Part shown: one piece after another, positions 19,670-56,398 of the stretch
Position numbering within the stretch: position 1 is the first letter of the stretch
Layout: each line of letters opens with the position of its first letter
DNA from: an uncultured Gammaproteobacteria bacterium
Lineage (GTDB): Bacteria > Patescibacteriota > Patescibacteriia > Magasanikbacterales > UBA922
Assembly: GCA_965231005.1 (NCBI GenBank)
Contig: OZ246405.1
Coordinates: 167,204 to 231,203 of the forward strand
Direction of reading: 5' to 3'
DNA: 64,000 nt
Made by a program: the position numbers and the translations under genes
Notes under the pieces: generated by a model
What the model was told of the DNA's origin: nothing
Database searches by the model: none
The model's input: only the letters and a program-made list of their open reading frames with translations

Positions 19670-19762
19670 ATTCGCCATCTACACCTGCCTGCCCAAAGGG
19701 TCGGGGGCCGCACGTAGTGATACGTTGTGGCCCCTGCCCCTGGCGGCGGGAACATAAGGAGT

Positions 19763-19790
19763 CACCCATTCTCTGGACAAAGAATGGGTG
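19763..19790 (+). other. 10-bp stem hairpin 3' of cassette B
   Basis: CACCCATTCT-ctggacaa-AGAATGGGTG. Confidence 0.5.
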
Positions 19791-19830
19791 AAGAAACAGT
19801 TCGTACAATAACTTGTACACACTGCATCAT

Positions 19831-19857
19831 AAAAAACTTCCTAACGGAAGTTTTTTA
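19831..19857. terminator. Bidirectional terminator after cassette B
   Basis: AAAAAACTTCC-taac-GGAAGTTTTTT. Confidence 0.8.
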
Positions 19858-19906
19858 TTGTCTAATATCTATTATTTAATAGACCTCGATTAAAGAACTA
19901 TTTTTT

Positions 19907-19942
19907 TGCCTTTAGAGCCTTTACAGCATTTATGGCCTTTTT
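19907..19942. repeat. 9-bp tandem array x4 upstream of the cassette C promoter
   Basis: TTGCCTTTA GAGCCTTTA CAGCATTTA TGGCCTTTT. Confidence 0.65.
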
Positions 19943-19974
19943 AGATTGACAATACAGTCAATCTAAGGTAACGT
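19943..19974 (+). promoter_or_regulatory. Promoter of cassette C with an overlapping perfect palindrome
   Basis: AGATTGAC-aataca-GTCAATCT spans the -35 TTGACA. The -10 is TAACGT at a 17-bp spacer. Confidence 0.5.
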
Positions 19975-20017
19975 CGTTTCACACACCCCAGACCGCACAG
20001 CGGTGGAGGAACAAACA

Positions 20018-20944
20018 ATGACTGGACCTTTCAAACTTCTCTTTCTCGACTTTGATGGAACTGCAACTGATGCTGAGCGCGAAGGCACTGAGCCTGGACC
20101 GCAAAGCCCTGGTGATCTGTCGTTTGTAGACGGATATCTCAAGGATATTGGGGTCATCTGTGACATTCCCTTGGCGCAAATGCAAAAGAGAAATGCAGCG
20201 CTTGTAGCCGAGATGCTTGCTGATCCAAGACGGCATTGTCTTGTCATTGATGGACAGAAGGTTGCACCAAGTTGTGTTGACCCCTTCCTCAGGACTGGTA
20301 TGGTTGTGAGACTGATTTTGGAAGAATCTGGTCTCATGTCCGAGACACCCGAAACAAGGGCAGCCCGAGACCGCATGATCACCAGTGTGATCTACCCATG
20401 GAACTACAGAGCAAGATCATCGATCTGCTTCCGTGCTGGAGCAAATGCGCTCTTTGCAGCGCTGCGCAACTCCAACATTCACATCATCAGCAACTCACAT
20501 ACAGACGGTGTGAATGGCAAGCTCGACCGTTTGAAGGATGGTCGATGGATCCTCAACGGAGATCAGGGCATTCCTCGTGTCCATGGTGATGCCAAGAAGT
20601 TCATCAACGACCCAAACTGGGAAGGCTCTGACCACATCGGCTGGCATCCGCCAACTGGACTGGAACTCCCAGGTCTTGATCGTGAAGTGCTGCTCCGACG
20701 ACGACTCTACTTCGCCAAGATGGATGCCATTCGCCGTCACTACGGACTCGAATGGGGACAGATCATGGTCGCAGGCGATATCTTCGAACTGGACCTGGCA
20801 GTGCCGTTGACACTGGGCTGCACTGTGGTGCTCATGGCCAACGAATTCACTCCGGGATACGAAATCGACTTCCTCCAGAGCCACCCCAATGGGCATGTGA
20901 TCGACAAGGTCATGGACATCGCAGATCTGTTCCTTGTCCCATAG
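20018..20944 (+). CDS. GC-rich HAD-superfamily hydrolase (cassette C)
   Basis: Motif I FLDFDGT, motif II ISNSHTD, motif IV VAGDIFELD. SD is GGAGGA. Confidence 0.7.
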   Translation: MTGPFKLLFLDFDGTATDAEREGTEPGPQSPGDLSFVDGYLKDIGVICDIPLAQMQKRNAALVAEMLADPRRHCLVIDGQKVAPSCVDPFLRTGMVVRLILEESGLMSETPETRAARDRMITSVIYPWNYRARSSICFRAGANALFAALRNSNIHIISNSHTDGVNGKLDRLKDGRWILNGDQGIPRVHGDAKKFINDPNWEGSDHIGWHPPTGLELPGLDREVLLRRRLYFAKMDAIRRHYGLEWGQIMVAGDIFELDLAVPLTLGCTVVLMANEFTPGYEIDFLQSHPNGHVIDKVMDIADLFLVP

Positions 20945-20966
20945 GAGCGGACATTCAACCCAAATT

Positions 20967-21013
20967 CCGAACTTACTCTTGTATACTGCTGAACGAGCAT
21001 GGAGTAAGTTCGG
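20967..21013 (+). other. Perfect 12-bp stem with 23-nt loop 3' of cassette C
   Basis: CCGAACTTACTC and GAGTAAGTTCGG. Confidence 0.65.
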
Positions 21014-25204: not shown

Positions 25205-26464
25205 TCAGGCTACCTTGAAAACTGGTCTTGCTCTTACATCGTTTCGGTCAACTTTCAAGCAACCGAGGGCTTTACGTGCCTCTGCTGGGCTGATGAACTC
25301 GCGTAGCATGAGTCTGTAGATGTAGTTTACGCAAAGGATGTGCATGATGAAGTTGTACCCAACACGCTCCCCTGTGTAATACCGGTACTGATCGTGCCTT
25401 GAGATTTGTTCGTACAGCTGATCTCGAATGTACTGGATGTCATGTCCTTCTGCACGCAACTGTGCTTCTTGTCCTCTGTGGAACGTAAGCACATACAACA
25501 GCATGGGAGTCAGTTCGGGATGGAGTTGTGTTCCAATCCACCACGGACCTGCACTGAGCACCTCTACCATGTACTGATGTATTTCGTGCTTTCGCTTTGT
25601 TCTACCCACCCGGGCAAACCGACGATGACTCACAGCAAGTACTGAAGACCTCAGACTGGGATGATCTGGATCAAGATACATCGAATGCACTTCAAGCGCA
25701 AACGTATTATGTGTCATCCGAAGAACTGGGTGGCTCCGCTTCGTTCGAACGACTTGCAGTCGTTGTCTCCCGTAAATCATAAGGCGCTCGCCAGGAGAAA
25801 CTGGAAAAAAACGCCTGCTGGTCGCACCGGTTGATTCGACAAGTAAAGAAGCTTGTTCTGGAGCAATCAAATATTCTGGCATTACGCCGAAAAGCGCGTG
25901 TGCCATCATTTGGCATCCAAAACAAATGTTGAATCCTGGAATGCCAATCTCGTGACAAAACTGCATCAGTCTGATGGAATCTTGAATGACCGACGTGTCT
26001 TTGACCTGATCAAGCATCTTTGGTGAGCCACTGAAAATAATCCCAGCAGGTCGTGAATGCTCAACCATGATCTGGTGGCACAGGTCTGAAATGTGTGACT
26101 CGGCATGGACAATAAGCAGTTCGAGTGGTTTGGCACCACGTGCACTGAACGCACCAGAGTTGTTTGCCCAGCTCAGCCAACGACCGATCTTGTCAGTGTC
26201 TTTAAACCAACCATCATCAACACCACGCAGCAGCATCTTTCTGAGATCTTGACGGCCAACGCCTGTGTTGATGAAGAGATCAGTCCACTTATTCCCGTTC
26301 GCACTGTCCAACGTTTCTTGGATCATCTTGTGGTAGATGTGTTCCTGACCTGGACGCATGTCCACGTACACGACAGTGTTGCCCTTGATTCTGTCGCCTT
26401 TGCGGTAGATATAGGTTGGGCAAGGACGAGGCGTCCTGCCCGCAAATCTGCGGCTCATAGTCAC
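25205..26464 (-). CDS. GC-rich class I glutamine amidotransferase-like protein with extra N- and C-terminal regions (cassette D)
   Basis: GATase1 nucleophile elbow NICFGCQMMAHAL and HPE in IGTQLHPELT. SD is GGAGGTGA. Confidence 0.55.
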   Translation of the reverse strand: MTMSRRFAGRTPRPCPTYIYRKGDRIKGNTVVYVDMRPGQEHIYHKMIQETLDSANGNKWTDLFINTGVGRQDLRKMLLRGVDDGWFKDTDKIGRWLSWANNSGAFSARGAKPLELLIVHAESHISDLCHQIMVEHSRPAGIIFSGSPKMLDQVKDTSVIQDSIRLMQFCHEIGIPGFNICFGCQMMAHALFGVMPEYLIAPEQASLLVESTGATSRRFFPVSPGERLMIYGRQRLQVVRTKRSHPVLRMTHNTFALEVHSMYLDPDHPSLRSSVLAVSHRRFARVGRTKRKHEIHQYMVEVLSAGPWWIGTQLHPELTPMLLYVLTFHRGQEAQLRAEGHDIQYIRDQLYEQISRHDQYRYYTGERVGYNFIMHILCVNYIYRLMLREFISPAEARKALGCLKVDRNDVRARPVFKVA

Positions 26465-28920: not shown

Positions 28921-29469
28921 CTATCGCCGGAAGCCTTTGGCAGGGAAACCGTACGTAATTCCAGACGAGGGTGGATGCAACAGAGAATTGAGTGCATCTT
29001 GGTACACTGAATACCAAGGAAGTCTCCCTGGAGCCCCCTCGAAGAGGGTGTGAGTCACAAGATGGACATGACTCTTTTTCACCGACCGAACATGTACTCG
29101 AATCCTGATCCGAAGATCTGGCATTTGAACCAATGAAACGACTTTCCGATTCGACGTCTTGATGCAAATAGGCTTGTCCTTGACCATGATGACAGGAAGT
29201 GGACTGCCGTTGTGGGCGCAAAACACATACCCACGTTTTTCATTGCACCGAAAGTAGGTCCGCACGCGATGTCGAGCAATGTGAAGCGGTGGAAACACCA
29301 TATCTCTTGGGCTAGAAAACAAATCCTCACCAGTCGCGTCGCACCGAAAGCGGAAAACAACACGACCACCACCCACACGAACAGGGTCAAAGCCTTCTCG
29401 TGCGATTTTTCTGAATACTTGCTGCGGCATCCGATTTACAACTCCCATGACTGCGATAAGCTGACTCAT
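28921..29469 (-). CDS. GC-rich hypothetical protein (cassette G, 182 aa)
   Basis: SD is GGGGGTGAAAG directly before the ATG, the same spacer as cassettes A and F3. Confidence 0.5.
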   Translation of the reverse strand: MSQLIAVMGVVNRMPQQVFRKIAREGFDPVRVGGGRVVFRFRCDATGEDLFSSPRDMVFPPLHIARHRVRTYFRCNEKRGYVFCAHNGSPLPVIMVKDKPICIKTSNRKVVSLVQMPDLRIRIRVHVRSVKKSHVHLVTHTLFEGAPGRLPWYSVYQDALNSLLHPPSSGITYGFPAKGFRR

Positions 29470-29589: not shown

Positions 29590-32481
29590 CTATTCCTTAC
29601 TAACTTTCAATGAAAGGCTTGAGTCATGAATCGTAATATCTTCTCCAACACTCTTACCTGATTCTTCAACGCGCTGACTTCTTGTCGACTTTGCAATATC
29701 ATCTCTATATTCTGCAAAAACATCTTTCACCAACTTGTCAGAGGAGTTCCATGTCAGTACACCACCGTCGTTGAGTGTTAATTTTTCTTCTTTTCTCATT
29801 TGATTTACAGCACGAATAATCTCTCGAGCCATGCCTTCTTTTTTCAATTCAGGAGATAGTGTAACATTCAGACCAATTTCTAAATCGTTCTCTTTTCTCG
29901 TTTTCCATTCTCCTTCTTTTGACATTTTTTTCTGCAACGTTTTTACGTTTAACTCATCTAAAATAAGGGATGCAAGACTGCTTGAAATTTTTTCATTTAC
30001 TGACAACGTTGCCAGTGGCTGACGAACACGAATACCAACTTCTTTTCTAACAGACATTCCTAGTTCAACAACTTTTCTGACCTGTTCCATTTCACGAATA
30101 GACTTGGCATTTTTCCAAGATTTTTCTGCTTCTGGCCACATATCAAGATGAACTGATTGTTCTTGTCCACCAACTTTTCTGTAAACATATTCAGCAATAA
30201 AAGGAGTAAATGGTGCCATGACCTTTGAGAGTGTCAACAATACTTCTTCGAGTGTTCCGAGTGCAGCTGCTTTATCTTTTTGATCATCAGATTTGAGTCT
30301 ATTTCTTGATCGACGAACATACCATTGCGAAAGATCTAAAATAAAATCTTGAATTGGACGCGCTGCTTCTGCAAGTCTGTACGCCTTCATTTCCTTTGTA
30401 ACAATATCAACAAGTTCATAGAGGCGTGCACGAATCCATACATCAAGATCATGTTTTGATTTACTTTCCTTGTCACCATCTTTAAACATTTCATAAAATG
30501 TTACAACATTGGAAAGTGTATTCATGTTTTTGTTAAACACCTCTCTCACACCTGTCTCAGAAAAATTCATACTTTCCATTGCCATGACTGGAGAACTAAG
30601 CAAGTAATATCGGAGTGCATCTGCTCCATATGTTTCAATCATTTTCATTGGATCTGGATAGTTCTGTAACTTCTTACTCATTTTCTTTCCATCCTCTGCA
30701 AGAACAATCCCGTTCACAATAACATTTTTAAATGCATTTGATTTCTTTATTCCTGTTCCAATAATGTGCAGATAATAAAACCACGCACGTGTTTGGTCTT
30801 GCGCTTCTGCAATAAATTCTGCAGGAAAACCAGCATCAAATTTTTCTTTATCTTTAAATGGATAATGAACCTGCGCATATGGCATTGACCCAGAATCAAA
30901 CCATGTATCAAGCACATCTGGAATTCGTGACATTGTTTCATTACACGAAGGACATGAAAATGTAACCTTATCCATTGTATGTTTGTGTAAATCATCTATC
31001 TTCAAACCTGATAATGATTCTAGTTCTTTAACCGAACCTACAACAACATAGTCACATTCTTTTTCTTTCTTATTTGAACATTCCCAAACTGGCATGACAG
31101 ATGCCCAAAAACGCTGCCGAGAAATAGACCAATCTCGGGCGCCTTCTAACCAGTTTCCAAATCTGCCTTCTTTTACATGTGCTGGTGACCAGTTAATATT
31201 CTTTGCTTGTTTTAATGCTTCTTTTTTAATTTCTGTCACATGTACAAACCAAGAAGATGTTGCATAATTTAATAATGGTGTGTCACAACGCCAACAATGA
31301 GGATAGCTATGTTCATATTTTTTCTTTGCAAACAATTTTCCATTATGCGCAAGCCATTTAATAATTTTAACATCGGTCGCCATATGATCATCTGACGGTT
31401 TTACGTGGTCGCCAGCAAAATCTGTAACATCATCTGTAAATGTTCCATTCATTTTTACATGTTGGATAAATGGTACACCTTCTTGTTTAAAAATTTCATA
31501 ATCATCACTCCCAAAAGCAGGAGCAAGATGTACAACACCTGTTCCCTCTTCTGTTGTTACAAAGTCTGCATGCAGAATACGAAATGATTTTTCACTCTCT
31601 GCAAAATATGGAAATAATGGTTCGTATTCTAAATCGATGAGTTCTTTTCCTTTTTTGTTATCAATTACTTCAAATTCTTTACCCTCAAAATTTGCCATAA
31701 GCAAATCTTTTGCAAGAATATAATGTGCATTTTCAAATTTTACAATGACATAGTCTATATCTTTTCCAACAGCAAGAAGTACATTGCCAGGAAGTGTCCA
31801 CGGTGTTGTTGTCCATGCAAGAACATACACATCTCCTTCAACATCAAGTCCTTCTGGATTTGTGATTTTAAACTGAGCAGTAACTGAAATATCTTTTACA
31901 TCTTTATATCCTTCACTTACCTCTTGCTGAGAAAGTGTTGTCTCACAACGAGGACAAATATGCATTGGTTTGTATCCTTGATAAATCAAATCCTTTTCCC
32001 AAAGTTCTTTAAACACCCACCAAACTGATTCCATATAATCCTTGTCCATTGTCCAGTATGCATTTTCCATATCTACCCAACGACCATATCGCTTAATCAC
32101 CTTTGCCCATTCTGTTGCATATGCATCAACTTTTGAGCGACAAAGATTGTTGAACTTTTCAACACCCATTTTTTCAATATCTTGTTTACTTTTTGTTCCA
32201 AGTTCTTTTTCAACAATATTTTCAATTGGCAATCCATGACAATCCCAACCCCAAACACGTTCAACACGTTTTCCATTCATTGTCCAAAATCTTGGGACTG
32301 TATCTTTCATCACACTTGGAACAAGATGCCCATAATGAGGAAGACCTGTAGCAAATGGTGGACCATCATAAAAAACATACGGCTCATCTTCTGGACGTTG
32401 TTCAACTGATTTTTCAAATGCATGAATGTCTTCCCAATATTTGAGAATTTCTTTTTCATGCTTATCTGCTAAATACGGCAT
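29590..32481 (-). CDS. ileS: Isoleucyl-tRNA synthetase
   Basis: HYGH and KMSKK class I motifs, editing domain, and C-terminal zinc-binding cysteines. About 963 aa from the MPYLADK start. Confidence 0.95.
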   Translation of the reverse strand: MPYLADKHEKEILKYWEDIHAFEKSVEQRPEDEPYVFYDGPPFATGLPHYGHLVPSVMKDTVPRFWTMNGKRVERVWGWDCHGLPIENIVEKELGTKSKQDIEKMGVEKFNNLCRSKVDAYATEWAKVIKRYGRWVDMENAYWTMDKDYMESVWWVFKELWEKDLIYQGYKPMHICPRCETTLSQQEVSEGYKDVKDISVTAQFKITNPEGLDVEGDVYVLAWTTTPWTLPGNVLLAVGKDIDYVIVKFENAHYILAKDLLMANFEGKEFEVIDNKKGKELIDLEYEPLFPYFAESEKSFRILHADFVTTEEGTGVVHLAPAFGSDDYEIFKQEGVPFIQHVKMNGTFTDDVTDFAGDHVKPSDDHMATDVKIIKWLAHNGKLFAKKKYEHSYPHCWRCDTPLLNYATSSWFVHVTEIKKEALKQAKNINWSPAHVKEGRFGNWLEGARDWSISRQRFWASVMPVWECSNKKEKECDYVVVGSVKELESLSGLKIDDLHKHTMDKVTFSCPSCNETMSRIPDVLDTWFDSGSMPYAQVHYPFKDKEKFDAGFPAEFIAEAQDQTRAWFYYLHIIGTGIKKSNAFKNVIVNGIVLAEDGKKMSKKLQNYPDPMKMIETYGADALRYYLLSSPVMAMESMNFSETGVREVFNKNMNTLSNVVTFYEMFKDGDKESKSKHDLDVWIRARLYELVDIVTKEMKAYRLAEAARPIQDFILDLSQWYVRRSRNRLKSDDQKDKAAALGTLEEVLLTLSKVMAPFTPFIAEYVYRKVGGQEQSVHLDMWPEAEKSWKNAKSIREMEQVRKVVELGMSVRKEVGIRVRQPLATLSVNEKISSSLASLILDELNVKTLQKKMSKEGEWKTRKENDLEIGLNVTLSPELKKEGMAREIIRAVNQMRKEEKLTLNDGGVLTWNSSDKLVKDVFAEYRDDIAKSTRSQRVEESGKSVGEDITIHDSSLSLKVSKE

Positions 32482-32488
32482 AAATAAA

Positions 32489-32644
32489 AAACAATTAACA
32501 ATTAACAATTAACAATCCACCTAGGACTTGATAATCGTTAATTGCTGTTTGGTAATCGTTACCTATCGTATGTTTTTTTTGCTTAGTTGTCAAGTTTTTT
32601 TGATTCAAAAAATTTGTTAATTGTTTTTTGTTAATTGCTAATTG
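32489..32644. repeat. MITE-like element copy C, with inverted TTGTTAATTG arrays bounding about 100 bp
   Basis: Left arm is (AACAATT)x4 and right arm is TTTGTTAATTGTTTTTTGTTAATTGCTAATTG. It has an internal 9-bp direct repeat TAATCGTTA. The right arm abuts the island E terminator module. Confidence 0.55.
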
Positions 32645-32645
32645 T

Positions 32646-32689
32646 AAAAAGAAAAAGCCCCGTACGTAAACGCCGTGACTCTTCCTCCC
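32646..32689 (-). terminator. Repeated 44-bp terminator module, copy 1, 3' of the UPRT-like gene
   Basis: AAAAAGAAAAAGCCCCGTACGTAAACGCCGTGACTCTTCCTCC, near-identical to 34839-34882. Confidence 0.5.
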
Positions 32690-32721
32690 TTTTGTTTGTT
32701 ATAGACAGGTGGACACACAGC

Positions 32722-33570
32722 CTACTTCTTGGTTCCGTGCAGGCGCTCACCCACACCACCAGCACCAGGCACGATGTAGTGGATGTCGTTGAGTCCAGAC
32801 TCTTCGTCCCAGCGTTCACCGGGCACACAGTTGAGCACGTCTGTTGGGCTCATGCCACGGTCGATTCGACCGGCAAAGATGTGAACGTCTGGATGATCGG
32901 TCGACATCTTGCGGATGAACTCAGGCGTGACGATGAGACACATGACAACGAACGTGGCACCGAATCCACTATACTTCTGCTTGTACAGCGTGACCGCATC
33001 ACTCATGGACCCACCAGTTGCGCCCATGGGGTCTGGAATGAGAACGAGCTTGCCAGCCACATCACCGTCGATCTTGTCAGCCGGGCACTCAACATGCGTC
33101 ACAGCACCAGTTGTCTTGTGGGCCATGCGCTGCATCATGAGAACATCCATGCGCACGCACGCATCACCGAAAGTGGTCGTGAGGATCTCCTGCAGCCTGT
33201 AGCTTGGAATTCCACCAGCGCGCATCACATTTGCAATGACGATTCCACCGGCAGGCGGCTGGATGATCGGACAGGTGAACACTGCCTTGTCTCCAACCAA
33301 CTCATGCATCGGCGTAGTCACAGAAACCGACTTCTGATGAAAAATGGTACGGTCTTCAACCACTGCCTTCATGAGCTGAGAATAGGCTCCTCTCACCAAG
33401 TCGCCAAGCCGCGGCATGACCGCATCCTCACTGGACATTTCCGCGAGCATTCGGAACAGGTAGGGAGATGCAGGAACCCGCAACGAACCCCCACCTTCCC
33501 AATGGTACTGATGAGGGATGTCATCCAGATTGATGTCAAAATACAAATCCCAATGTGGATCTCTGTGCAT
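32722..33570 (-). CDS. GC-rich uracil phosphoribosyltransferase-like protein with a roughly 75-aa N-terminal extension (island E, gene 5)
   Basis: VLIPDPMGATGGSM aligns with Upp ALIVDPMLATGGS. YIVPGAGGVGERLHGTKK aligns with YIIPGLGDAGDKIFGTK. Confidence 0.7.
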   Translation of the reverse strand: MHRDPHWDLYFDINLDDIPHQYHWEGGGSLRVPASPYLFRMLAEMSSEDAVMPRLGDLVRGAYSQLMKAVVEDRTIFHQKSVSVTTPMHELVGDKAVFTCPIIQPPAGGIVIANVMRAGGIPSYRLQEILTTTFGDACVRMDVLMMQRMAHKTTGAVTHVECPADKIDGDVAGKLVLIPDPMGATGGSMSDAVTLYKQKYSGFGATFVVMCLIVTPEFIRKMSTDHPDVHIFAGRIDRGMSPTDVLNCVPGERWDEESGLNDIHYIVPGAGGVGERLHGTKK

Positions 33571-33614
33571 GTCTATCTCCCTACCACTGTTGAATGTGGT
33601 TTCGTTCTGGAAAG

Positions 33615-33643
33615 AGACTATCAAAAAAAATACATCACGTCAA
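33615..33643 (-). promoter_or_regulatory. Internal promoter for the UPRT-like gene
   Basis: TTGACG, 17-bp spacer, TAGTCT. Confidence 0.4.
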
Positions 33644-33653
33644 CGTATTCCTT

Positions 33654-33691
33654 AAAACAGAAAACCTCCACCCGACACTGTCGAATGGAGG
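33654..33691 (-). terminator. Attenuator-like hairpin between the MTAP-like and UPRT-like genes
   Basis: Minus strand CCTCCATTCGACA-gtg-TCGGGTGGAGG followed by TTTTCTGTTTT. Confidence 0.45.
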
Positions 33692-33721
33692 CTTCCTCCT
33701 TGTTGAGTTCTTGTGTTATGC

Positions 33722-34720
33722 CTACTTCCCCCCGAGCAGATGAAACAGCCAGGGCAGGAACCGTTGCAAATACACACGCTTGACCTTGCCGATCTTGGTG
33801 TGAAGACCGATCTGTGGTGCGTCTGCGCAGTAGCACGAAGCTTCGCTCTGAGCAGCCAGGTATGCAGCAGCTGCAGGACCTTGGAAGAACGCATCGAGAA
33901 GCAGGAACAAGGTCTTCTTGCACGTGCCCACGTTCTTGATGATCACAGTCAGATCGACTTCTTCATCAGACCATGCATCCTCATCGACAGGAAGCGCGAT
34001 CGGAACGTAGTGCAGCCCTGCATCACGTGAGAGCTTTGCCTCTGGAGCTGTGGTCATGCCGATGATGCCGATGTAACCGACAAGCTCGAGCAGCTTCTGA
34101 TGAAGGAGCGACTCCAACCTGGTCGAGAACTGCGGACCTTCCATGCAGACATAGCCAACAGGCAGGTCACCAGTGTAGAACAGGTCCTCGTACCCATCGA
34201 GTTGCTTGGCAGTCTCGAGAAGTGCAGCAGAGAGTGCATTGCAGAATGGATCTGCAAACTTCACATGAACAGCACACTCGCCCTCGTCGTAAAAGGTCGT
34301 CTTGCGTTTCGTGGTTTTGTCCCACAGTTGATGCGGCAAAACCGGCTTGCCCGGCTCGATGTCTCCGCTCAGTGAGCCCACGGTTGTTGGCGCGAGCACA
34401 TTCATCGTCAGCATGCGAAGTGCAAAGATGTTCGCCCGATTCGGGATCACAGTCGGAATCGTCTTGTGATAGTTGTCATGGCGCTCGATCACTGCGACAA
34501 TGATTTTTGAGCCTCGCCACGTACCAACGGAGATGTCAGAAGATGGCTTGCCAAACGGAGTGTCCGGATCGTTTAGAACAGTGACGTCCTCGAGCACCTC
34601 TGTGACATCGATGCCCGTTGGACAAAAAAGCGCAAAGTCTGCAGGCAGCAGTTCTTGCAGCTTGGGCCAGGGGAAAAACGTACCTTCGATCGTTGCTCCA
34701 CCGATAGATCTGAAAATCAT
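33722..34720 (-). CDS. GC-rich 5'-methylthioadenosine / purine nucleoside phosphorylase family protein (MTAP-like; island E, gene 4)
   Basis: DTPFGKPS, ANIFAL, PFC, LLETAKQL, CMEGPQFSTRLES, GMTTAPE and VDEDAW align with MTAP. Confidence 0.8.
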   Translation of the reverse strand: MIFRSIGGATIEGTFFPWPKLQELLPADFALFCPTGIDVTEVLEDVTVLNDPDTPFGKPSSDISVGTWRGSKIIVAVIERHDNYHKTIPTVIPNRANIFALRMLTMNVLAPTTVGSLSGDIEPGKPVLPHQLWDKTTKRKTTFYDEGECAVHVKFADPFCNALSAALLETAKQLDGYEDLFYTGDLPVGYVCMEGPQFSTRLESLLHQKLLELVGYIGIIGMTTAPEAKLSRDAGLHYVPIALPVDEDAWSDEEVDLTVIIKNVGTCKKTLFLLLDAFFQGPAAAAYLAAQSEASCYCADAPQIGLHTKIGKVKRVYLQRFLPWLFHLLGGK

Positions 34721-34802
34721 GTTGCCCTCCCAGCAGCATTTGCTGCAAATGAGCGTTCAAGTTCTTTAGACACAAAAAAAGCGTCCTAAACGACTGTAGC
34801 CG

Positions 34803-34831
34803 AGATTTAGATAAATGTCAACATTATTGAA
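34803..34831 (-). promoter_or_regulatory. Promoter for the MTAP-like gene
   Basis: TTGACA, 17-bp spacer, TACAGT. SD is GGGAGGG. Confidence 0.5.
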
Positions 34832-34838
34832 AAAGAAA

Positions 34839-34882
34839 AAGCCCCGTGCATAAACGCCGTGGCTCTTCCTCCTTGATTCTGT
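34839..34882 (-). terminator. Repeated 44-bp terminator module, copy 2
   Basis: GAAAAAGAAAAAGCCCCGTGCATAAACGCCGTGGCTCTTCCTCC. Confidence 0.5.
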
Positions 34883-34887
34883 AATTG

Positions 34888-36666
34888 TTATGCTGCAATG
34901 AGATCTGCTACTGTGACTGGCTTTGGCTCGCCAGGAGCAAGCAGCTTATGCCACTTACGCTCTATAGCTTCAGTCCAAGAAAAAATAAGCGGACACCCTT
35001 CTTCACTCGAGGCTCTAACTCCGATGACTAGACCGTCCTGCCTCATCCGAGAAAGAAACAGATCCAGTGCCAGTCTGGTCGGGAATTCTTTGGTCGGTCC
35101 GACAAACTCCTCTTCGAAATCACTTGCGAGAAAGTCTTTTCCTTCTGACCAGATGAAAATGAGCATCCTGCGGAACTCAACAAGTTCCTTGGGGTTCAGC
35201 TTGATGCAATGACTTATAACGTGTCGGACTTGGTGCTGCGGAAAATGCGGAAGACCTGGCAGCTTTTCTGCGAGCTTTGCTGTCCATGAGTAGGACTTAA
35301 CTTTTCTTTCGTTTTGTCTCACGTCTACTGACGTAAGGAATCCATACTCACAAGCCATATCAATGGATCTCTCCAGACTGACCACGGTTTTGAATTCCTT
35401 ATCCTCTCCAACCAAGTAGTCTTTGACATCACCTAGTGTGAACGGAAGTCCACACGAGCAGATGTACATAAGCCGGAGACGGGTAAGCCATGAATCGTAA
35501 TAGACTGTGTACTCAGGCAAAAGCCAGTTCGCAAGTTTTTGAACAAGTCTAGACTTTGTTTCGCCTTGCGAGCGAAAACTATCAAGCACATGTCCGTACA
35601 TCTTACGAGCTTTCTTCGTCCAATAGTAACGAAATGTACTGGAGTAGTTTTGTGCTTTCTTCGTTGTGACCATCCCACGTCTCTTCAGGAGATTGGTGAA
35701 ATTCTTGAGCTGGCTAAAGGTTCGGAACATCTTGTCCGGACCGACAACACAGTTAGCAATACCACGACGGAGAAATGGATTCCCGTACGAAGCCAAAAAG
35801 AGAAAGAGTCCTCGTCGGTACACCTGAGCTTCTGGCCCACCATGTACCAAATCTGAGTAAACATCGTCTCTGAGGCTTGCAGTGAGAATATCCCACGTCT
35901 CTCTTGAACTGAGCAGTGCTGCAAATGTTTCTAAGAGCTTGTTCTTTCCTGCTTCGGTCCAATCATATGTGGCCCTGGTCGAACTTTGAACAACTTCAAG
36001 CGAGCCATCGTAGACCATAAAATCAAGAAGCTCTCGGACAGGATGAGGGCCAATGAATTCGTCCCTGGTGCCAAAGAAAAATGTCTTGATTTCGTGACCG
36101 AAAAACCGGAGACCGAGCGTTCGAAGGAACACCACTGCTTGCTTCTGCTCAAGAGAAAGAGCGTTGAATGCATCTTCTCGAGCAGCTCTGTTTGCAAGTT
36201 CTGTTCTTCTTTGATTTCGCTCCCGCCTCTCACGAAGCCTTTCTCGGGCGAGAAATCGCTGACGAGCCCTTTCTTGTTCCTTCAGTTCAGCACGTGTAAG
36301 TCGACGCCTTTCTGGACGGCTTGATCTTGTCCGAACCTGACGTATACGCTTGCGCACCACCTTTGCTGGCTCAGGCTTTGACTGAGCGACAAAGTCAGCA
36401 TATCGCTGGAATTCACCTTCTTCCCAACTAGGAACCACGCGAGTGAAAGAGAAGAAGAACTCACGTCCTTTGTTCCGCGTCCCAATCCTACTCGCAAGCA
36501 TCTTCCCAGTTCCAGAATTTCTCAGTAAATGGGTTACAACATCGTCTTCGCACTCAAACGGACATCCGTCATCTTTGACGTGCGCGACCACAAACGACAG
36601 AGGAAATTCTTTCATCCCTCTGGTCAGCAGCCACACCCAGTGCAAATATGTAATTTGCCTTTGCAT
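34888..36666 (-). CDS. GC-rich hypothetical 592-aa protein with an Arg-rich coiled segment (island E, gene 3)
   Basis: Start at MQRQITYLH with SD GGAGGTG. No domain recognised. Confidence 0.55.
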   Translation of the reverse strand: MQRQITYLHWVWLLTRGMKEFPLSFVVAHVKDDGCPFECEDDVVTHLLRNSGTGKMLASRIGTRNKGREFFFSFTRVVPSWEEGEFQRYADFVAQSKPEPAKVVRKRIRQVRTRSSRPERRRLTRAELKEQERARQRFLARERLRERRERNQRRTELANRAAREDAFNALSLEQKQAVVFLRTLGLRFFGHEIKTFFFGTRDEFIGPHPVRELLDFMVYDGSLEVVQSSTRATYDWTEAGKNKLLETFAALLSSRETWDILTASLRDDVYSDLVHGGPEAQVYRRGLFLFLASYGNPFLRRGIANCVVGPDKMFRTFSQLKNFTNLLKRRGMVTTKKAQNYSSTFRYYWTKKARKMYGHVLDSFRSQGETKSRLVQKLANWLLPEYTVYYDSWLTRLRLMYICSCGLPFTLGDVKDYLVGEDKEFKTVVSLERSIDMACEYGFLTSVDVRQNERKVKSYSWTAKLAEKLPGLPHFPQHQVRHVISHCIKLNPKELVEFRRMLIFIWSEGKDFLASDFEEEFVGPTKEFPTRLALDLFLSRMRQDGLVIGVRASSEEGCPLIFSWTEAIERKWHKLLAPGEPKPVTVADLIAA

Positions 36667-36712
36667 GATCCACCTCCAATAGGATGGTTGGTTAATGTAG
36701 AGAGCAAGATAA

Positions 36713-36741
36713 AAATTACCAGAAAAATTGATAGTGGTCAA
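36713..36741 (-). promoter_or_regulatory. Candidate internal promoter for gene 3
   Basis: TTGACC, 17-bp spacer, TAATTT. Preceded by the hairpin CTCCCCCGAC/GTCGGAGGAG at 36769-36790. Confidence 0.35.
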
Positions 36742-36841
36742 CCTTTGATACTCTCACAAAGTTGAAACTCCCCCGACGATGTCGGAGGAGTGTCTTGTTG
36801 ACCAACCGCCGTCAAATGACAGAGATTGATACTTGAATTTT

Positions 36842-37300
36842 TCAGCTTGAATTAATTGGCTGATTTACCAACCAATCATAATGACCGCGACTGATGCGAA
36901 CGAACATCGGATTGTTTGAACGAGTTCGCCAACTGGCGTAAGCGATAGCACTTCTTCTTGTCTTGAATGGACAGTCTGGACTATCAATCAGGTGTTGAAG
37001 ACATGTATCTTTTATGGAAAATGGGCGGCCGCATGTCACATTCCAAAACCATTGGTCAGCTTCAGTCATTCCATCTGGCTCGGATCTGTTGAGCCAGTGA
37101 TAGAAGTTACCACCACGGATTTCGAGCAGTCTCATCCATTTGAGATCATCAATGACCTCCAGGACGATCCGCACTGACGGAAACTGCGTTCCTTTTCCAA
37201 CCTTCTCAACAACGTGCGCCGAGTGGAATCGAATTGGAAACGTTTCGCGTAGCCATTTCTGAATTTCAAGCTTTCTTGGAGTAATTGTTCTGTGTTCCAT
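36842..37300 (-). CDS. GC-rich hypothetical 152-aa protein with a possible Cys/His metal site (island E, gene 2)
   Basis: Start at MEHRTITPRK with SD AAGGGGGTG. The C/H spacing (CGRPF..CLQHLIDSPDC) hints at a metal site. Confidence 0.5.
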   Translation of the reverse strand: MEHRTITPRKLEIQKWLRETFPIRFHSAHVVEKVGKGTQFPSVRIVLEVIDDLKWMRLLEIRGGNFYHWLNRSEPDGMTEADQWFWNVTCGRPFSIKDTCLQHLIDSPDCPFKTRRSAIAYASWRTRSNNPMFVRISRGHYDWLVNQPINSS

Positions 37301-37488
37301 ACCAACACCCCCTTGTTTTGTTGGTGGTTGCAACAGACGTAGAGTCAAAGAGCGATAACTGACCCTATCATGATGCATCTTTCCTGTCAATGCAAATGAA
37401 AAAGCGCCTAGCGGTCTGTCGACCAGCTAAACGCTTTTTTTCCTTGCCCGGCTTGGAAACCGAACCCCTGTGTCTTGTGTTGTACTGA

Positions 37489-39297
37489 CTACGCTGCTTC
37501 ACTTGCATTCTGCGATTCCCGCTGCATCATGAGCTTGTCCACCCAACTACGAGGAACAACCCCAGGCACATAGCTGCCATAACGACTGTTGCGAGGTGTG
37601 TAGATGAAAACTCCTTGAACGATGAGTTCGCCCTGGACCTTTGCGTTTCTCCAGTCTTGTGAGGACATGTTAGAGCTGGTCTTTGCACGGAGAGCCTTGC
37701 AGTCTTCACTTCTGAACAGTTGTCCATCACTTGCAAGGAATATCTCCAAACCTCGATTGTAGCCCATTGGAGGGAGCCGGATGTACTCACGCGTCCAAAA
37801 GCCTTTGTACCAGACTGCGCCGTCTTCGCGGACTGTACCATCCGTTAGCTCAGTTGATGTAGCAGCTCGCTGTTCATAAAGTTCGTCGACCCACGAACGC
37901 AAAACCACTCCCGGTGTGTAGATTCCTCCACGTTTCCCTTCTTTCGAAGCGTATGAGTATGCTGCATCGAGCACACCACCCTGCTGTACAGCACTACGCC
38001 ACTGAGGGTAACTCATGGGAGGACTGATGACCTTGAGAAATTCCTTGATTGCCGATGACGGAAATGGTTGTCCGTCACTTTTGAGGAACATCTTCCTGAC
38101 TCGATCTTGAGCAAATGGACGAAGACCTGGAATCTCATCCATCACCCAAAAACCCCTGTACAGAACTGCACCATCTTCGCGGGCTGTACCGTCCTTCAGT
38201 TCAGTTGATGCTTTCTCGTCAGGCTTGTCTTCGGCCTGTTCTGGTTCTGCACCTTCTTCTTCGCTCGATTCATCATCAGCTTCGCTAGTTGCTGGCTCAG
38301 AATCTTCTGCTGCTGGTTCGTCCTCGACCTCTTCAGTCTCATCTGGATCTGCAGCTTCAGGTTCGATGGGTTCATCCGCATCTTGGATTTCAGGCTGAGA
38401 ATCTTCAGCTTGCGCCTGCTCAGTTTGATCTGCGGAATCAGCATCCGAATGAACCGGACCCTCACCCCAACCTGGTGGCGGACTTCCTTCCTGCCCGATC
38501 GGTGCAGCAAAAACCTTTGCAGCTCGTGCTGCAGCGGCAGCTTCTCGTGCTCTGACTTCTGCCTGAGCTTTCTCAGCAAGCGCAGCCCAGTTTCTGGAAC
38601 GGACAGACCAATCAACAGATCCAACCACCTCTACCATCCCATCTTCTCGGAACGTTGGCCTTGACCGGGGAAGAGTTGAAAGAGGCCATGAAGGAGCTGC
38701 TGGCTTTGCAGCTTGCTCACCCTCAACAGGCGTTTCGTCGTCAGCGTTTTGCTCTGGATGCAGCAGTGCAATGTTCAACTTCCAGCGACCTCTGCCAGCA
38801 TCGAGCAGCAGTTGGCATGCCACCAAATCAGAGAAAACAACATCACTTCCCTTCAGCCACTCAATGAGCCTGAAACGAGCAAAAACAGCACTGTTTGGAT
38901 CCTTGCCACCCTCGATCAGCTTGATTTCAATGAGCCGAGCTGCCTCAAAGTCAGCTTCCTCAGGATCTCGAAAAACGATTTTCTTCTTGATCGGTGGCGC
39001 TTTTTTACGACGCTTTGAAGATTTCGACTCCCCACCAGAAGGACGTTGAGAAAGGCAAGCACGCCCAGAATCTGTAAAGTACAGATGACCACTAGTGAGA
39101 CGCTTCAGGAACCCATGCCTGGTAGCATCTGAGATGAATGCAGCGAGATCGTCTTTTGCAATCCGCCCACTTACACGGAGAGCTTCTGGGAGAAGTCGCG
39201 CTCCATGCAATGTTTTGCTCATCCGTCCTAGTACTGTTGCCACCTCAGCAGCAACTGTTTTTTGACTCTTGACCATAGCCTTCTTTTTGCGAGCCAT
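37489..39297 (-). CDS. GC-rich 602-aa protein with a basic N-terminal region, a roughly 90-aa acidic low-complexity linker and two tandem roughly 110-aa C-terminal repeats (island E, gene 1)
   Basis: SD is GAGGAGGTCATC then ATG. The two repeat units begin ELKDGTAREDGAVLYRGFW and ELTDGTVREDGAVWYKGFW. Confidence 0.6.
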   Translation of the reverse strand: MARKKKAMVKSQKTVAAEVATVLGRMSKTLHGARLLPEALRVSGRIAKDDLAAFISDATRHGFLKRLTSGHLYFTDSGRACLSQRPSGGESKSSKRRKKAPPIKKKIVFRDPEEADFEAARLIEIKLIEGGKDPNSAVFARFRLIEWLKGSDVVFSDLVACQLLLDAGRGRWKLNIALLHPEQNADDETPVEGEQAAKPAAPSWPLSTLPRSRPTFREDGMVEVVGSVDWSVRSRNWAALAEKAQAEVRAREAAAAARAAKVFAAPIGQEGSPPPGWGEGPVHSDADSADQTEQAQAEDSQPEIQDADEPIEPEAADPDETEEVEDEPAAEDSEPATSEADDESSEEEGAEPEQAEDKPDEKASTELKDGTAREDGAVLYRGFWVMDEIPGLRPFAQDRVRKMFLKSDGQPFPSSAIKEFLKVISPPMSYPQWRSAVQQGGVLDAAYSYASKEGKRGGIYTPGVVLRSWVDELYEQRAATSTELTDGTVREDGAVWYKGFWTREYIRLPPMGYNRGLEIFLASDGQLFRSEDCKALRAKTSSNMSSQDWRNAKVQGELIVQGVFIYTPRNSRYGSYVPGVVPRSWVDKLMMQRESQNASEAA

Positions 39298-39515
39298 GAT
39301 GACCTCCTCTGATCCCTAGTCTGTCCCAAAATGGACAAAAACTGGTTTCAAAAATATTTTCTGCGTCTATTACAGATGGTATATAGTCCAAAATTCATTT
39401 TTGAGACCAGTTCTATATAAAACGTAACAAGAAATAGCATGCTCGTCAATTATTGCCGACAAAAATTCACCATGCTATAATCTGCTTGTATATTTAAGTC
39501 CTGACACACTATTAT

Positions 39516-39965
39516 ATGTACGAAGGAAACCTCTATATTGCCTCAGATCATGGTGGATACAAACTTAAAAAACGCCTTGTTCGGTATGTTGAAAATGAAC
39601 TAAAGCGAGAAATTACAGACTTAGGTCCACATGAGTATGACGAGGCTGATGATTATCCTGATTATGTAATCCCACTTGCGCAAAAAGTTGCAAAAGAAGA
39701 TGCACGTGGTATTGTAATATGTAGAAATGGCATTGGTGTGAATATTGCAGTAAATAAAGTTAAAAATATTCGTGCTGGAATTGGATACAATCTAAAAGTT
39801 GCTGAAAGTATGATGAAAGATGATAATACAAATATTCTTTCACTTGCAGGAGACTCACTTTCAGAAGATCATGCCATGGCAATTGTAAAACGATGGCTTG
39901 AAACAGAATTTAGTAGTGCAGAGCGTCATACCCGTCGATTAAAAAAAGTTGCTGAATTGGAATAA
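39516..39965 (+). CDS. rpiB: Ribose-5-phosphate isomerase B
   Basis: LacAB/RpiB family, 149 aa. Its promoter is TTGCCG, 17-bp spacer, TATAAT. Confidence 0.85.
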   Translation: MYEGNLYIASDHGGYKLKKRLVRYVENELKREITDLGPHEYDEADDYPDYVIPLAQKVAKEDARGIVICRNGIGVNIAVNKVKNIRAGIGYNLKVAESMMKDDNTNILSLAGDSLSEDHAMAIVKRWLETEFSSAERHTRRLKKVAELE

Positions 39966-50022: not shown

Positions 50023-50435
50023 AGGAATACTATTACCCTATTGAAACGCGTGGCAAAAATAAAAAAACAGCTACCAACAAACTGATACCTGCAAGCAAAT
50101 AATAGTAAACAAGGTGAAATTCTTCTCTTTCTTGGGTATTAAAAAGACCCTTATGTTTATGTTGCATAGATTTTGTGTTTGTTTTGATGTTTATGTTTGT
50201 TTGGGGCGCATTGTCCCCTGTCTTTGTGTCCCAACTGGCGTGTGAGATCACACGTTATGATACAAAAGCACTACACACCTACATTATTCTCCGATAAAAC
50301 AACAACCGGATGAAAAATATAAATATCTGCTACTTTTATATAACTATTATAGCAGAAAAAAGGGCGTTTGTCAATAGCAATTTTTTGCAAAAAACCTTTA
50401 CTTTGCGATTCAAGTGTCGTAAAATAGTTACATAT

Positions 50436-51413
50436 ATGAAAAAAAATCTTGCAAAACTTCTCAGAGAATTTCTTGAACATTTAGAAATTGAAAAAAATCG
50501 AAGCAGCAAAACTGTTCAAAACTATACCTTCTATCTTTTTAGATTTTTAGAGTGGCATGGAGAAGATAAAGGGGCAAAAAGTATTGATGGTGAGGCTGTA
50601 CGCCAATATCGTCTTTGGTTAAATAGGCTTGTTGATGTTCACGGGGAACCCTTGAAAAAAAATACACAAAATTATCATCTTATTGCATTGCGTTCTTTTC
50701 TAAAATACCTAGCAAAACGTGATATCACGAGTTTGGCAGCAGAAAAAATTGAATTAATGAAAATGCCAGACCGCCAAGTAACATTTTTAGAAGGCACAGA
50801 TCTTAGTCGCCTACTCGAAGCACCAGTAGAAGAATTAAAAAATACAAAAGACCAAAAAAACGCATCAACAAATAGACTGATCGGTCTTAGAGACAAATGT
50901 ATTTTAGAAATGTTGTTTTCAACCGGTCTACGTGTTTCAGAATTGGCAAAATTAAAAATTGAAGATGTAAATGTTGAAAAGGATGAATTTACTATTCAAG
51001 GGAAGGGAAAGAAAACAAGAATTGTATTTTTATCTGAGCAGGCAAAATACTGGTTAAAAGAATACACAAAAGCAAGAAAAGACATGAATCCTCATTTATT
51101 TGTATCTCATGACAAGAACAAAAAGGCAAGAGACAAAAAAGCAGAAACTCTCGAGTCAATTAGTCCAAGGACGATTCAACGAATTGTTCAAAAATATGCA
51201 AAAATAGCTGGAATTACAAAACCAGTAACTCCTCATACCTTGCGACATTCATTTGCAACAGATCTTTTGCAAAATGGAGCAGATATTAGGAGTGTTCAGA
51301 GCATGCTAGGTCATTCTTCTATAACAACAACACAAATTTACACCCATATTACAGATAAGGAGCTTCGAAAGATACACAAAAAATTCCATGGGAAAAAGCG
51401 AAGTGGCGATTGA
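50436..51413 (+). CDS. Tyrosine site-specific recombinase, XerC/XerD-like
   Basis: Catalytic R..K..HxxR..Y (LRHSFATDLL, GHSSITTTQIYTH). AT-rich. Confidence 0.8.
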   Translation: MKKNLAKLLREFLEHLEIEKNRSSKTVQNYTFYLFRFLEWHGEDKGAKSIDGEAVRQYRLWLNRLVDVHGEPLKKNTQNYHLIALRSFLKYLAKRDITSLAAEKIELMKMPDRQVTFLEGTDLSRLLEAPVEELKNTKDQKNASTNRLIGLRDKCILEMLFSTGLRVSELAKLKIEDVNVEKDEFTIQGKGKKTRIVFLSEQAKYWLKEYTKARKDMNPHLFVSHDKNKKARDKKAETLESISPRTIQRIVQKYAKIAGITKPVTPHTLRHSFATDLLQNGADIRSVQSMLGHSSITTTQIYTHITDKELRKIHKKFHGKKRSGD

Positions 51414-53023: not shown

Positions 53024-53097
53024 GGTGGCTATGGTGTAGTGGTAACACAGAGGCTTGTGGTGCCTTTATCACGGGTTCGATCCCCGTTAGCCACCCC
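53024..53097 (+). tRNA. tRNA-His (anticodon GTG) with an encoded G-1
   Basis: Hand-folded. G-1 pairs with discriminator C. Acceptor GTGGCTA/TAGCCAC. Anticodon loop TTGTGGT. T-arm ACGGG-TTCGATC-CCCGT. Confidence 0.8.
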
Positions 53098-53116
53098 TTT
53101 GGGGGTTTTTTATTTG
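53089..53116 (+). repeat. tRNA-His 3' end plus terminator, repeat copy i
   Basis: AGCCACCCCTTTGGGGGTTTTTTATTTG. An identical 28-mer recurs at 54081-54108 and a diverged copy at 53569-53606. Confidence 0.8.
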
Positions 53117-53120
53117 GATC

Positions 53121-53149
53121 AAAAAAACACCAGAGTTGGTGTTCTTTTG
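53121..53149. repeat. Cassette-boundary hairpin module 1
   Basis: AAAAAAACACCA-gagt-TGGTGTTCTTTTG. Confidence 0.75.
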
Positions 53150-53182
53150 TTATAGGAAAAGCCGTATAGGTCTAGTCATGAT

Positions 53183-53500
53183 CTACCCCCCTGCCTCAAA
53201 TATCGTTGCCAGATCTTCAATTTCCTCTCTTGTCCATCCATCATAATATTCGCTCCAAAAAGGATGTTCTTTATCCTCAAGCATCGCTCTATAGTCGTAG
53301 GACAGACTCTTAAACGAGACTGGGGATGGGTTTTCAGACTCCAGCACACTACGCTCTTTCTCAAATTCACGCTGGAATATTTTCATCACCCTGTCTGTAG
53401 GTGCCAACTGCTTGGCTTTTTCACTGACCCTGTTTAGTATCTCCTCACCCATCTCCTTTACATACGCAATTTCCCTATATGGGCTCAATTCACTATCCAT
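53183..53500 (-). CDS. Hypothetical 105-aa acidic protein (cassette F6)
   Basis: ORF between boundary modules. Its promoter TTGTTC, 16-bp spacer, TATAAT lies at 53528-53555. Confidence 0.5.
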   Translation of the reverse strand: MDSELSPYREIAYVKEMGEEILNRVSEKAKQLAPTDRVMKIFQREFEKERSVLESENPSPVSFKSLSYDYRAMLEDKEHPFWSEYYDGWTREEIEDLATIFEAGG

Positions 53501-53568
53501 ATGAAAATATTAATAATAATCTCCCTCATTATAGCACCAATCAGAGAATGAACAAAGTTCTAATACCG

Positions 53569-53606: not shown

Positions 53607-53653
53607 CTAATTTTCTTGTTTTTGTTGAGGGAAATATCTTGGCTCTAACCAAA

Positions 53654-56347: not shown

Positions 56348-56398
56348 AACAATGATGCCTTTTTGGTTTAGGGCAATGCTCCAAGATTGCCCCTCCCC

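Follow-up and report, generated by a model that had tools for sequence, protein, structure and literature searches.

Orphan genes and a salvage-type enzyme pair in a variable GC-rich slot between ileS and rpiB of a Patescibacteriia genome: a probable layered accessory island

We analyzed a stretch of 64,000 nucleotides from an uncultured bacterium of the Patescibacteriia (GenBank assembly GCA_965231005.1, contig OZ246405.1, positions 167,204 to 231,203), hereafter the window, in which all coordinates are counted from its first nucleotide. Five genes, all on the minus strand (32722-39297; g1 to g5 in the direction of transcription), fill a 7-kb gap between ileS (29590-32508, minus strand), the backbone edge of the island, and rpiB (39516-39965, plus strand), its other edge. 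An earlier note, made from the sequence alone, had described a GC-rich locus of five genes in one orientation and had proposed that they form a novel nucleoside-modifying, toxin, or defence module, with an acquired salvage set as a fallback. Open reading frame (ORF) and GC scans bore out the description. The GC content of the island, measured per 500 nt, is 0.44-0.56 compared with ca. 0.35 in the flanks (0.46-0.55 for the island as against ca. 0.36 for the backbone), and its composition is distinct from that of the backbone, in the manner of a genomic island. The island itself has two compositional layers, g1-g3 and g4-g5: the GC content at third codon positions (GC3) is 0.62 in both g4 and g5, 0.42-0.46 in g1-g3, and 0.17-0.28 in eight backbone genes.

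The sharp change in GC content at both edges would also fit an assembly chimera or a binning artefact joining the DNA of two organisms. However, the rpiB-g1 junction was present in two independent assemblies and the g5-ileS junction on a 28.5-kb contig, g1 had exact copies on two independent assemblies of sample ERR2281801, and the island proteins are also recorded on a 1,232,850-bp NCBI contig. Since copies exist on independent assemblies and on the NCBI contig, the junctions are not assembly artefacts. Additionally, the island genes share their promoter format with ileS, and relatives from other samples have comparable GC-rich inserts at this slot. Against this evidence, an artefactual origin is extremely improbable.

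The product of g4 (33722-34720, minus strand; 332 aa) belongs to the MTAP family (NP-I) of nucleoside phosphorylases. It matched PNP_UDP_1 (PF01048) over the full length of the profile (E = 2.6e-22; residues 29-279 against profile positions 2-232 of 233) and solved MTAPs in the PDB (E = 1e-36 to 1e-32), in agreement with its earlier description as MTAP-like. Its score against TIGR01694 was 181.4 bits, below the cut-off of 274.85, and it was below the cut-off in all other MTAP equivalog models too. In an alignment with human MTAP and four prokaryotic relatives, T35, R80, H81, H85, T112/T113, F198, S199, M222, T223, D246, and D248 of g4 matched T18, R60, H61, H65, T93, F177, S178, M196, T197, D220, and D222 of the human enzyme, which are its phosphate-, ribose-, and base-site residues. 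g4 thus shares with MTAPs (TIGR01694; PDB 1cb0, 1wta, and 4glf) the phosphate-site T, RH, T, and MT, the ribose-site His, and the base-site FS and DxD. In contrast, the loop before the equivalent of T18, GGTG or GGSG in MTAP, reads FCPTG in g4 (residues 32-36), with the Thr kept and two Gly replaced by Cys-Pro. A 26-aa N-terminal extension, a C-terminal extension of ca. 50 aa, and two short insertions also set g4 apart. The motif FRSIGGATIEG, which had been taken for an altered phosphate loop, falls in the N-terminal extension, and the true loop is FCPTG. Judged from its sequence, g4 is probably an MTAP-type phosphorylase that splits methylthioadenosine (MTA) and/or purine nucleosides with phosphate.

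The window also contains an S-adenosylmethionine (SAM) decarboxylase gene (59487-59894; AdoMet_dc, with TIGR03330 just below the cut-off). This enzyme yields decarboxylated SAM, whose use in polyamine synthesis yields MTA. Its presence is a physiological fit to an MTA-removing role of g4. No spermidine synthase was seen within the 64-kb window. The decarboxylase gene opens a moderately GC-rich patch (59500-60500, GC 0.46) and is followed, up to 60613, by a gene for a 240-aa protein without a family match (59487-60613 for the two).

g5 (32722-33570, minus strand) encodes 282 aa from an ATG preceded by a Shine-Dalgarno (SD) sequence, within an ORF of 300 aa. Its product matched UPRTase (PF14681; E = 1.3e-14; 54.6 bits against a gathering score of 27), which upholds the earlier assignment as similar to uracil phosphoribosyltransferase (UPRT), and remained below the upp equivalog cut-offs (67.6 vs 114 for NF001097 and 61.1 vs 208 for TIGR01091). 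Its relatives are 1835 proteins of ca. 270 aa that are 38-44% identical to g5 over 93-99% of the length and are annotated as uracil phosphoribosyltransferase at the source. Aligned with eight members of this long-form family, g5 showed 39-43% identity end-to-end, including the phosphoribosyl pyrophosphate (PRPP) loop DPMGATGGS and the family insert, with R117, G119, R140, R148, D180-P181-M182, A184-T185-G186, S188, Y265, I266, P268, and G269 invariant. The N-terminal segment with its H..Y motif, an LRAG-type Arg, the PRPP loop, an insert of ca. 20 residues (RGxSPxDVL..PGxRWDEExGL), and YIVPGAGGVGE are common to g5 and the family, which is that of Myxococcota and Bdellovibrionota-type genomes. 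g5 departs from it by an insertion of 4 residues close to the N-terminus and by a C-terminal HGTKK that is canonical-like. The extra N-terminal region of ca. 75 aa, earlier read as the sign of an altered enzyme, is a subfamily trait because it is common to more than 1800 proteins of ca. 270 aa. With the catalytic residues checked being kept in g4 and the extra parts of g5 being family traits, the signs of altered substrates earlier seen in the two enzymes lost their footing.

In three genomic neighbourhoods of the long-form family, a separate phosphoribosyltransferase (PRTase) gene lies beside or near the UPRT gene in every case, and a thymidine kinase gene lies immediately upstream of it in two (L085 and L086), with none among the called genes of the third (L083). 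The family therefore sits in a plain salvage setting, while g5 differs in standing alone beside an MTAP-like gene. To our knowledge, no member of the long-form subfamily has been characterized biochemically. By its resemblance to the family, g5 is probably a long-form UPRT that converts uracil and PRPP to uridine monophosphate (UMP). In a PHROG scan, g5 gave one match, to an unannotated PHROG, which was the sole PHROG match of the island. A 382-aa ORF on the plus strand (32635-33783), antisense to g5 and without a family match, is the gene call that replaces g5 on the ENA contig. We judged it to be a spurious long ORF of GC-rich DNA; at this place, the 282-aa UPRT-like gene is the one called in the NCBI and Logan records.

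The remaining three genes encode near-orphans. g3 (34888-36666, minus strand; 592 aa) is Arg-rich, as had been noted (10.5% Arg), and consists of an R/K-rich helix at residues ca. 101-170 followed by four tandem winged-helix repeats of ca. 90 aa (ca. 171-254, 280-365, 391-477, and 493-579). The repeats show an H1-b1-H2-H3-b2-b3 topology and structural similarity to solved winged-helix regulators. Their profile reached at best E = 0.18 against the PDB (a TFE winged helix), with 3elk at E = 1.5, and g3 had no Pfam match at E ≤ 0.1, those of the PadR/MarR families included. A full-length AF2 model built without an alignment had a pLDDT of 41, and the helix at 125-168 was its one usable part. The g3 repeats are alike in fold to PadR/MarR-type regulators (PDB 3elk, 5x11, and 3vod) without membership in their sequence families. 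Unlike these regulators, which consist of one domain and a dimerisation helix, g3 carries four tandem copies in one chain behind the Arg-rich helix, and its DNA binding is putative.

g1 (37489-39297, minus strand; 602 aa), preceded by the SD sequence GGAGG, has a basic N-terminus, an acidic linker at residues 283-362 with 36 Asp/Glu in 80 residues, and two tandem repeats of ca. 117 aa at 361-596 (46% identical, z ca. 38). The 90-aa poly-acidic linker and the two 110-aa repeats reported earlier are thus confirmed with these dimensions. g2 (36842-37300, minus strand) encodes 152 aa from an SD-preceded ATG, within an ORF of 182 aa, and is called with 152 aa on the ENA contig as well. The protein is basic (pI 9.6) and Trp-rich, and with 3 Cys, 6 His, and 7 Trp it is not notably rich in Cys and His as had been claimed.

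Searches for relatives of these proteins were almost entirely negative. A word-indexed search of 5.8 billion proteins returned g1 itself alone and, for g3, no relative besides the query. When 1.84 billion representatives were searched in full by HMMER, g3 had a single true relative, P0126 (330 aa, E = 1.6e-8, 28% identity). A second candidate, P0127, was judged spurious on inspection, being a repeat protein of unrelated composition. g1 and g3 had no match in Pfam, NCBIfam, the PDB, or PADLOC, and g2 had none in Pfam, NCBIfam, PADLOC, PHROGs, the PDB, or the fetched loci, with large protein databases lying outside the search for g2. No PHROG match and no transmembrane-like segment was found in g1, g2, or g3. 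Profile comparison by hhalign gave a weak link of the g3 repeat to the C-terminal repeats of g1 (probability 52%) and a weaker one to g2 (11%); with the N-terminal region of either g1 or g3, the probability was ca. 0. A shared origin of the g3 repeat with g1 or g2 was accordingly not adopted beyond a suspicion, and we suspect that g1 and g2 are built like g3 from winged helices. g1-g3 are not housekeeping families; they are lineage-restricted. They most likely encode nucleic-acid-binding proteins, whether regulators, nucleoid-associated proteins, or putative DNA-binding proteins derived from mobile elements.

To describe the transcriptional layout, we scanned the region for the promoter pattern TTGACN-17-TANNNT. 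Six minus-strand sites were found in 32401-39600, compared with 0.34 expected from shuffles, and they lie 73-152 nt upstream of the starts of g1, g2, g3, g4, g5, and ileS, one each. The sites, all on the minus strand, include those of g2 (37362-37390, TTGACA-17-TAGGGT), g3 (36713-36741, TTGACC-17-TAATTT), g4 (34793-34821, TTGACA-17-TACAGT), g5 (33615-33643, TTGACG-17-TAGTCT), and ileS (32565-32593, TTGACA-17-TACGAT), the last marking the backbone edge of the island. A stringent promoter scan detected the g4 promoter alone inside the island. The earlier note had credited every gene with a TTGACA promoter and a strong SD sequence. Each gene does have its own promoter-like site and SD sequence, but of the five sites, only those of g2 and g4 contain the exact TTGACA, with TTGACG or TTGACC in the rest.

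A stable hairpin lies 3′ of every gene (z -4.4 to -5.9) and is followed by a U-tract after g1, g3, g4, and g5, but not after g2. On the minus strand, these are a long hairpin with a U-tract after g1 (37399-37439; -34.6 kcal/mol, z -5.0), a hairpin without a clean T-tract after g2 (36770-36788), copy A of a 43-nt module after g3 (34830-34872; -20.8 kcal/mol, z -5.4), a terminator after g4 (33655-33701; -29.1 kcal/mol, z -5.9) followed by UUUUCUGUUU, and copy B of the module after g5 (32646-32688; -17.2 kcal/mol, z -4.4). The order of gene, hairpin, promoter, and next gene holds for all five. The position of each hairpin, upstream of the promoter that serves the following gene, makes it a terminator of the gene before it and not an attenuator; of the earlier reading of the intergenic hairpins as attenuator-like, only the hairpins themselves stand. 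With a stable hairpin after every gene and a promoter-like site after every hairpin, sequence prediction argues against a single operon, and the five genes are predicted to be five separate monocistronic units.

The module after g3 and g5, previously given as a duplicated 44-bp terminator, is indeed duplicated and measures 43 nt with three mismatches between the copies, where no match was expected by chance. In this terminator, an upstream purine tract (AAGGAGGAAGAG) pairs with the U-tract and so extends the stem. Homology between the copies does not reach beyond ca. 45 nt. Copy A forms the upstream and copy B the downstream bound of a g4-g5 cassette.

To compare the slot between rpiB and ileS among relatives, we anchored metagenome contigs by RpiB and obtained 19 loci (RpiB 62-77% identical), of which nine reach ileS (eight distinct sequences, 68-77%). 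A further comparison came from the 146-kb contig that encodes P0126, whose gene order equals that of the window (SpoU, ATP-grasp, PfkB, TrxR, Rpe, RpiB, the slot, IleS, M17, RuvA, and GyrA). P0126 lies in the same rpiB-ileS slot and in the same orientation as g3, ca. 380 bp from ileS, beside one 177-aa protein of no assigned family, and no phosphorylase or UPRT was found in that slot. Among the RpiB-anchored loci, the slot is empty (0.3-0.4 kb) in L088, L090/L091, and L106. It holds a diversity-generating retroelement (RVT_1 and bAvd) with a 255-aa protein in L092 (3.2 kb), a 361-aa orphan in L093/L096 (1.8 kb), a RhuM/Fic protein, an ECF-type sigma factor, and a 559-aa orphan with similarity to that of L093 (E = 4e-12) in L099 (4.5 kb), a 258-aa coiled-coil orphan in L101 (1.2 kb), and a 112-aa protein in L102 (0.9 kb). 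Occupancy is thus variable: three relatives (four loci) have nothing in the slot, five (six loci) and the P0126 contig have other cargo there, and every occupied slot is GC-richer than its own backbone. No homolog of g1-g5 was found in the nine loci that reach ileS. Hundreds of genomic islands and horizontal transfer of nucleotide-metabolism genes have been reported for Patescibacteria (PMC12455944). The island resembles the island hot-spots described there for Patescibacteria (candidate phyla radiation) in its foreign composition, its variable syntenic slot, and its mixture of orphan, mobile-type, and metabolic cargo including nucleotide metabolism, and differs from them in that no mobility gene or att site was found.

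The layout, composition, and slot comparison are best explained, with a probability that we put at roughly two in three, by a layered accessory island in the variable ileS-rpiB slot, in which a later and independent salvage pair, g4-g5, joined the lineage-restricted g1-g3. The first layer would consist of g1-g3, fast-evolving and nucleic-acid-binding. The second would be the 2.2-kb g4-g5 cassette, which would have entered later, on the ileS side of the g3 terminator; this terminator now stands on both sides of the cassette. We infer this order of insertion because of the split in GC3, the bracketing terminator, and the g3-like gene abutting ileS in the relative. Each gene would be transcribed alone from its own sigma-70-type promoter to its own intrinsic terminator. 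g4 would convert MTA or a purine nucleoside and phosphate to the free base and (methylthio)ribose-1-phosphate, and g5 would convert uracil and PRPP to UMP. Both would supplement nucleotide and MTA recycling of a reduced genome without acting jointly with g1-g3, to which nothing connects them in function. g4 and g5 are most likely horizontally acquired salvage genes, with which the fallback of the earlier note, an acquired salvage set, fits well. The novelty of the locus amounts to no more than an orphan architecture of multiple winged helices and two divergent representatives of enzyme families already known.

Several observations weigh against this layered reading. Both enzymes score below the NCBIfam equivalog cut-offs, and their substrates could therefore differ from the textbook ones; g4 has CPTG in place of the GGTG loop, and g5, like its whole long-form family, has GAGGVGE where canonical UPRT has GLGDAGD. 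No donor can be named for either gene: the nearest genomic relatives of g4 are 35-46% identical and come from methanogen-related archaea (Methanoperedens and Methanolobus) and Planctomycetota, and those of g5 are 38-44% identical and come from Myxococcota and Bdellovibrionota-type genomes. No integrase, transposase, or att-like repeat marking the island was found. The function proposed for g1-g3 is drawn from the fold of one domain, with negative N-terminal profile comparisons and a weak one for g2. They may have a role in defence or in a mobile element, as the slot holds cargo of the defence-island type (diversity-generating retroelement and Fic/RhuM) in relatives. Finally, the gene inventory of the host was taken from the 64-kb window of a small (1.23 Mb), AT-rich genome.

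The homolog of g3 at the same position and in the same orientation of the syntenic relative might instead suggest that g1-g3 are old, vertically inherited, and very fast-evolving genes of the lineage, with g4-g5 alone being foreign. The intermediate GC3 of g1-g3 is compatible with long residence, and a GC-rich gene for a 182-aa protein between ileS and the M17 gene has a 189-aa positional counterpart in the relative. However, the slot is empty or filled with unrelated cargo in the other relatives, the GC3 of g1-g3 is about twice that of the backbone, and g3 and P0126 are 28% identical compared with 68-77% for RpiB in the nine relatives whose loci reach ileS. Vertical descent of g1-g3 is accordingly improbable in our estimate.

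We also considered a decayed integrated mobile element, such as a plasmid, a virus, or an integrative and conjugative element of the lineage that targets the ileS-rpiB slot, with g1-g3 as replication, partition, or regulatory genes and g4-g5 as auxiliary metabolic genes. The island contains no signature of an integrase, relaxase, capsid, terminase, or replication initiator, and relatives of g1, g3, and g5 as well as the terminator module are absent from 2.9 million viral contigs (IMG/VR). A search of 32509-39515 found no mobility genes and no flanking direct repeats of att type, the sole direct repeat being the internal 43-nt terminator. The nearby tyrosine recombinase (50310-51413) belongs to the AT-rich backbone and is conserved in the relative with the P0126 contig. 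With g1-g3 also lacking PHROG matches, such an origin is unlikely.

The proposal of a new anti-phage defence or toxin system remains to be weighed against the layered island. In such a system, the winged-helix proteins would sense or bind foreign nucleic acid, and g4 and g5 would deplete or modify nucleotides. In its favour, the ileS-rpiB slot behaves as a hot-spot of defence or accessory genes in relatives, g1-g3 are orphans like many defence genes, and PNP-fold and PRTase-fold domains serve as effectors in some known defence systems. However, PADLOC-DB 2.0 models gave no match for any of the five proteins at E ≤ 0.1, each gene is predicted to be its own transcription unit, and g4-g5 are compositionally unlike g1-g3 and form a cassette bounded by repeats. 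P0126 occurs without the enzymes, the g5 family is found in salvage neighbourhoods, and g4 retains the phosphate-site residues of true phosphorylases. Furthermore, in 80 loci surrounding the closest MTAP relatives, no relative of g1, g2, g3, or g5 lay within 10 kb, and the five families were nowhere found together among these loci, the three UPRT neighbourhoods, and the nine loci that reach ileS. The absence of co-occurrence and the essentially canonical active sites of g4 and g5, both of which the earlier note would have counted against a module, were observed, while g1-g3 did not turn out to be housekeeping families. A five-gene defence or toxin system is therefore very unlikely. We give equally little credence to the narrower idea that g1-g3 form an unseen multi-winged-helix system sensing nucleic acids, for defence or for control of mobile elements, with g4 and g5 as nucleotide-depleting or nucleobase-modifying effectors; if true, this ultra-small bacterium would harbour a defence island of a novel kind. 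On present evidence, it would be unwarranted to regard the five genes as a candidate system for defence or nucleoside modification.

If the layered-island reading is correct, the locus is a small and clean case of a reduced, AT-rich genome patching its nucleotide and MTA recycling through the acquisition of individual genes, complete with promoter and terminator, at a recurrently used variable slot by ileS. A bona fide HGPRT gene in the GC-rich ileS-M17 slot of L090 (5911-6558; TIGR01203, 177.6 bits against a cut-off of 150) indicates that salvage PRTases recur in variable slots of the lineage, and this HGPRT of a related genome would then have been acquired in a like manner. Such a reading would be useful for annotating genomes of this kind and agrees with the islands already described in Patescibacteria. 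Its novelty would be modest: one orphan (g3) in which an Arg-rich helix precedes four tandem PadR-like winged helices, another (g1) with an acidic linker and a duplicated domain of ca. 117 aa, and evidence for a UPRT subfamily of ca. 270 aa moving between phyla.

Further observations concern the slots next to ileS. In L092, the diversity-generating retroelement (reverse transcriptase and bAvd; 7163-8543) adjoins the GC-rich gene for the 255-aa protein, a candidate target. The orphans of L093 (1626-2711) and L099 (7129-8808) form a second slot-specific family, with a shared region of ca. 150 aa (E = 4e-12) followed by a coiled coil and no sequence relation to g1-g3. The slot between ileS and the M17 gene is likewise variable and GC-rich: it holds the 182-aa orphan in the window (28921-29469), the 189-aa gene in the P0126 contig, and a NadR-like kinase fragment and a PP2C phosphatase in L101 (4280-5818). 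Directly upstream of ileS, an element of ca. 120 nt that contains AGUA...CGGGUAAGCCCG...GGGUGGUACCGUCC is conserved in relatives (L088 2463-2580; L090, L101, L102, and L106) and gave a weak Rfam match to a compact T-box leader (19.4 bits, E = 0.035, gathering score 93). The corresponding part of the window (32509-32645) is without this element and carries only the TTGACA-17-TACGAT promoter flanked by inverted repeats of the TTAACAA type (32491-32516 and 32620-32645). Apparently, this genome has lost or replaced the ileS leader, possibly at the insertion of the island. An Rfam scan of the island itself gave no credible RNA family.

Other parts of the window also bear on nucleotide metabolism or composition. 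At its start (13-1446) lie genes for a PyrE-like orotate phosphoribosyltransferase and PyrF (orotidine monophosphate decarboxylase), which gives the genome at least the final two steps of UMP synthesis besides the acquired UPRT. The most extreme GC island of the window (18500-21000, GC up to 0.66) contains a 361-aa low-complexity orphan (18584-19669; GC3 0.88 compared with ca. 0.2 in the backbone) and a 313-aa orphan (20003-20944), both without a Pfam match. All-against-all BLAST and phmmer comparisons showed no significant paralogy between the g1-g5 island and the other GC-rich islands of the window, and a hidden Markov model of the g3 repeat matched g3 only. A 4.4-kb GC-rich island (53100-57500) lies right after tRNA-His (53025-53097) and encodes, besides several small orphans, a divergent RNase III (54304-55482; TIGR02191, 88 bits against a cut-off of 166) that includes a dsRBD and a Pro-rich linker. 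Its position beside the tRNA gene suggests integration, with no integrase found within it. Between ruvA and gyrA, a GC-rich gene for 419 aa with a weak class-I glutamine amidotransferase domain (25205-26464) is another insertion, because ruvA and gyrA adjoin in the P0126 contig.

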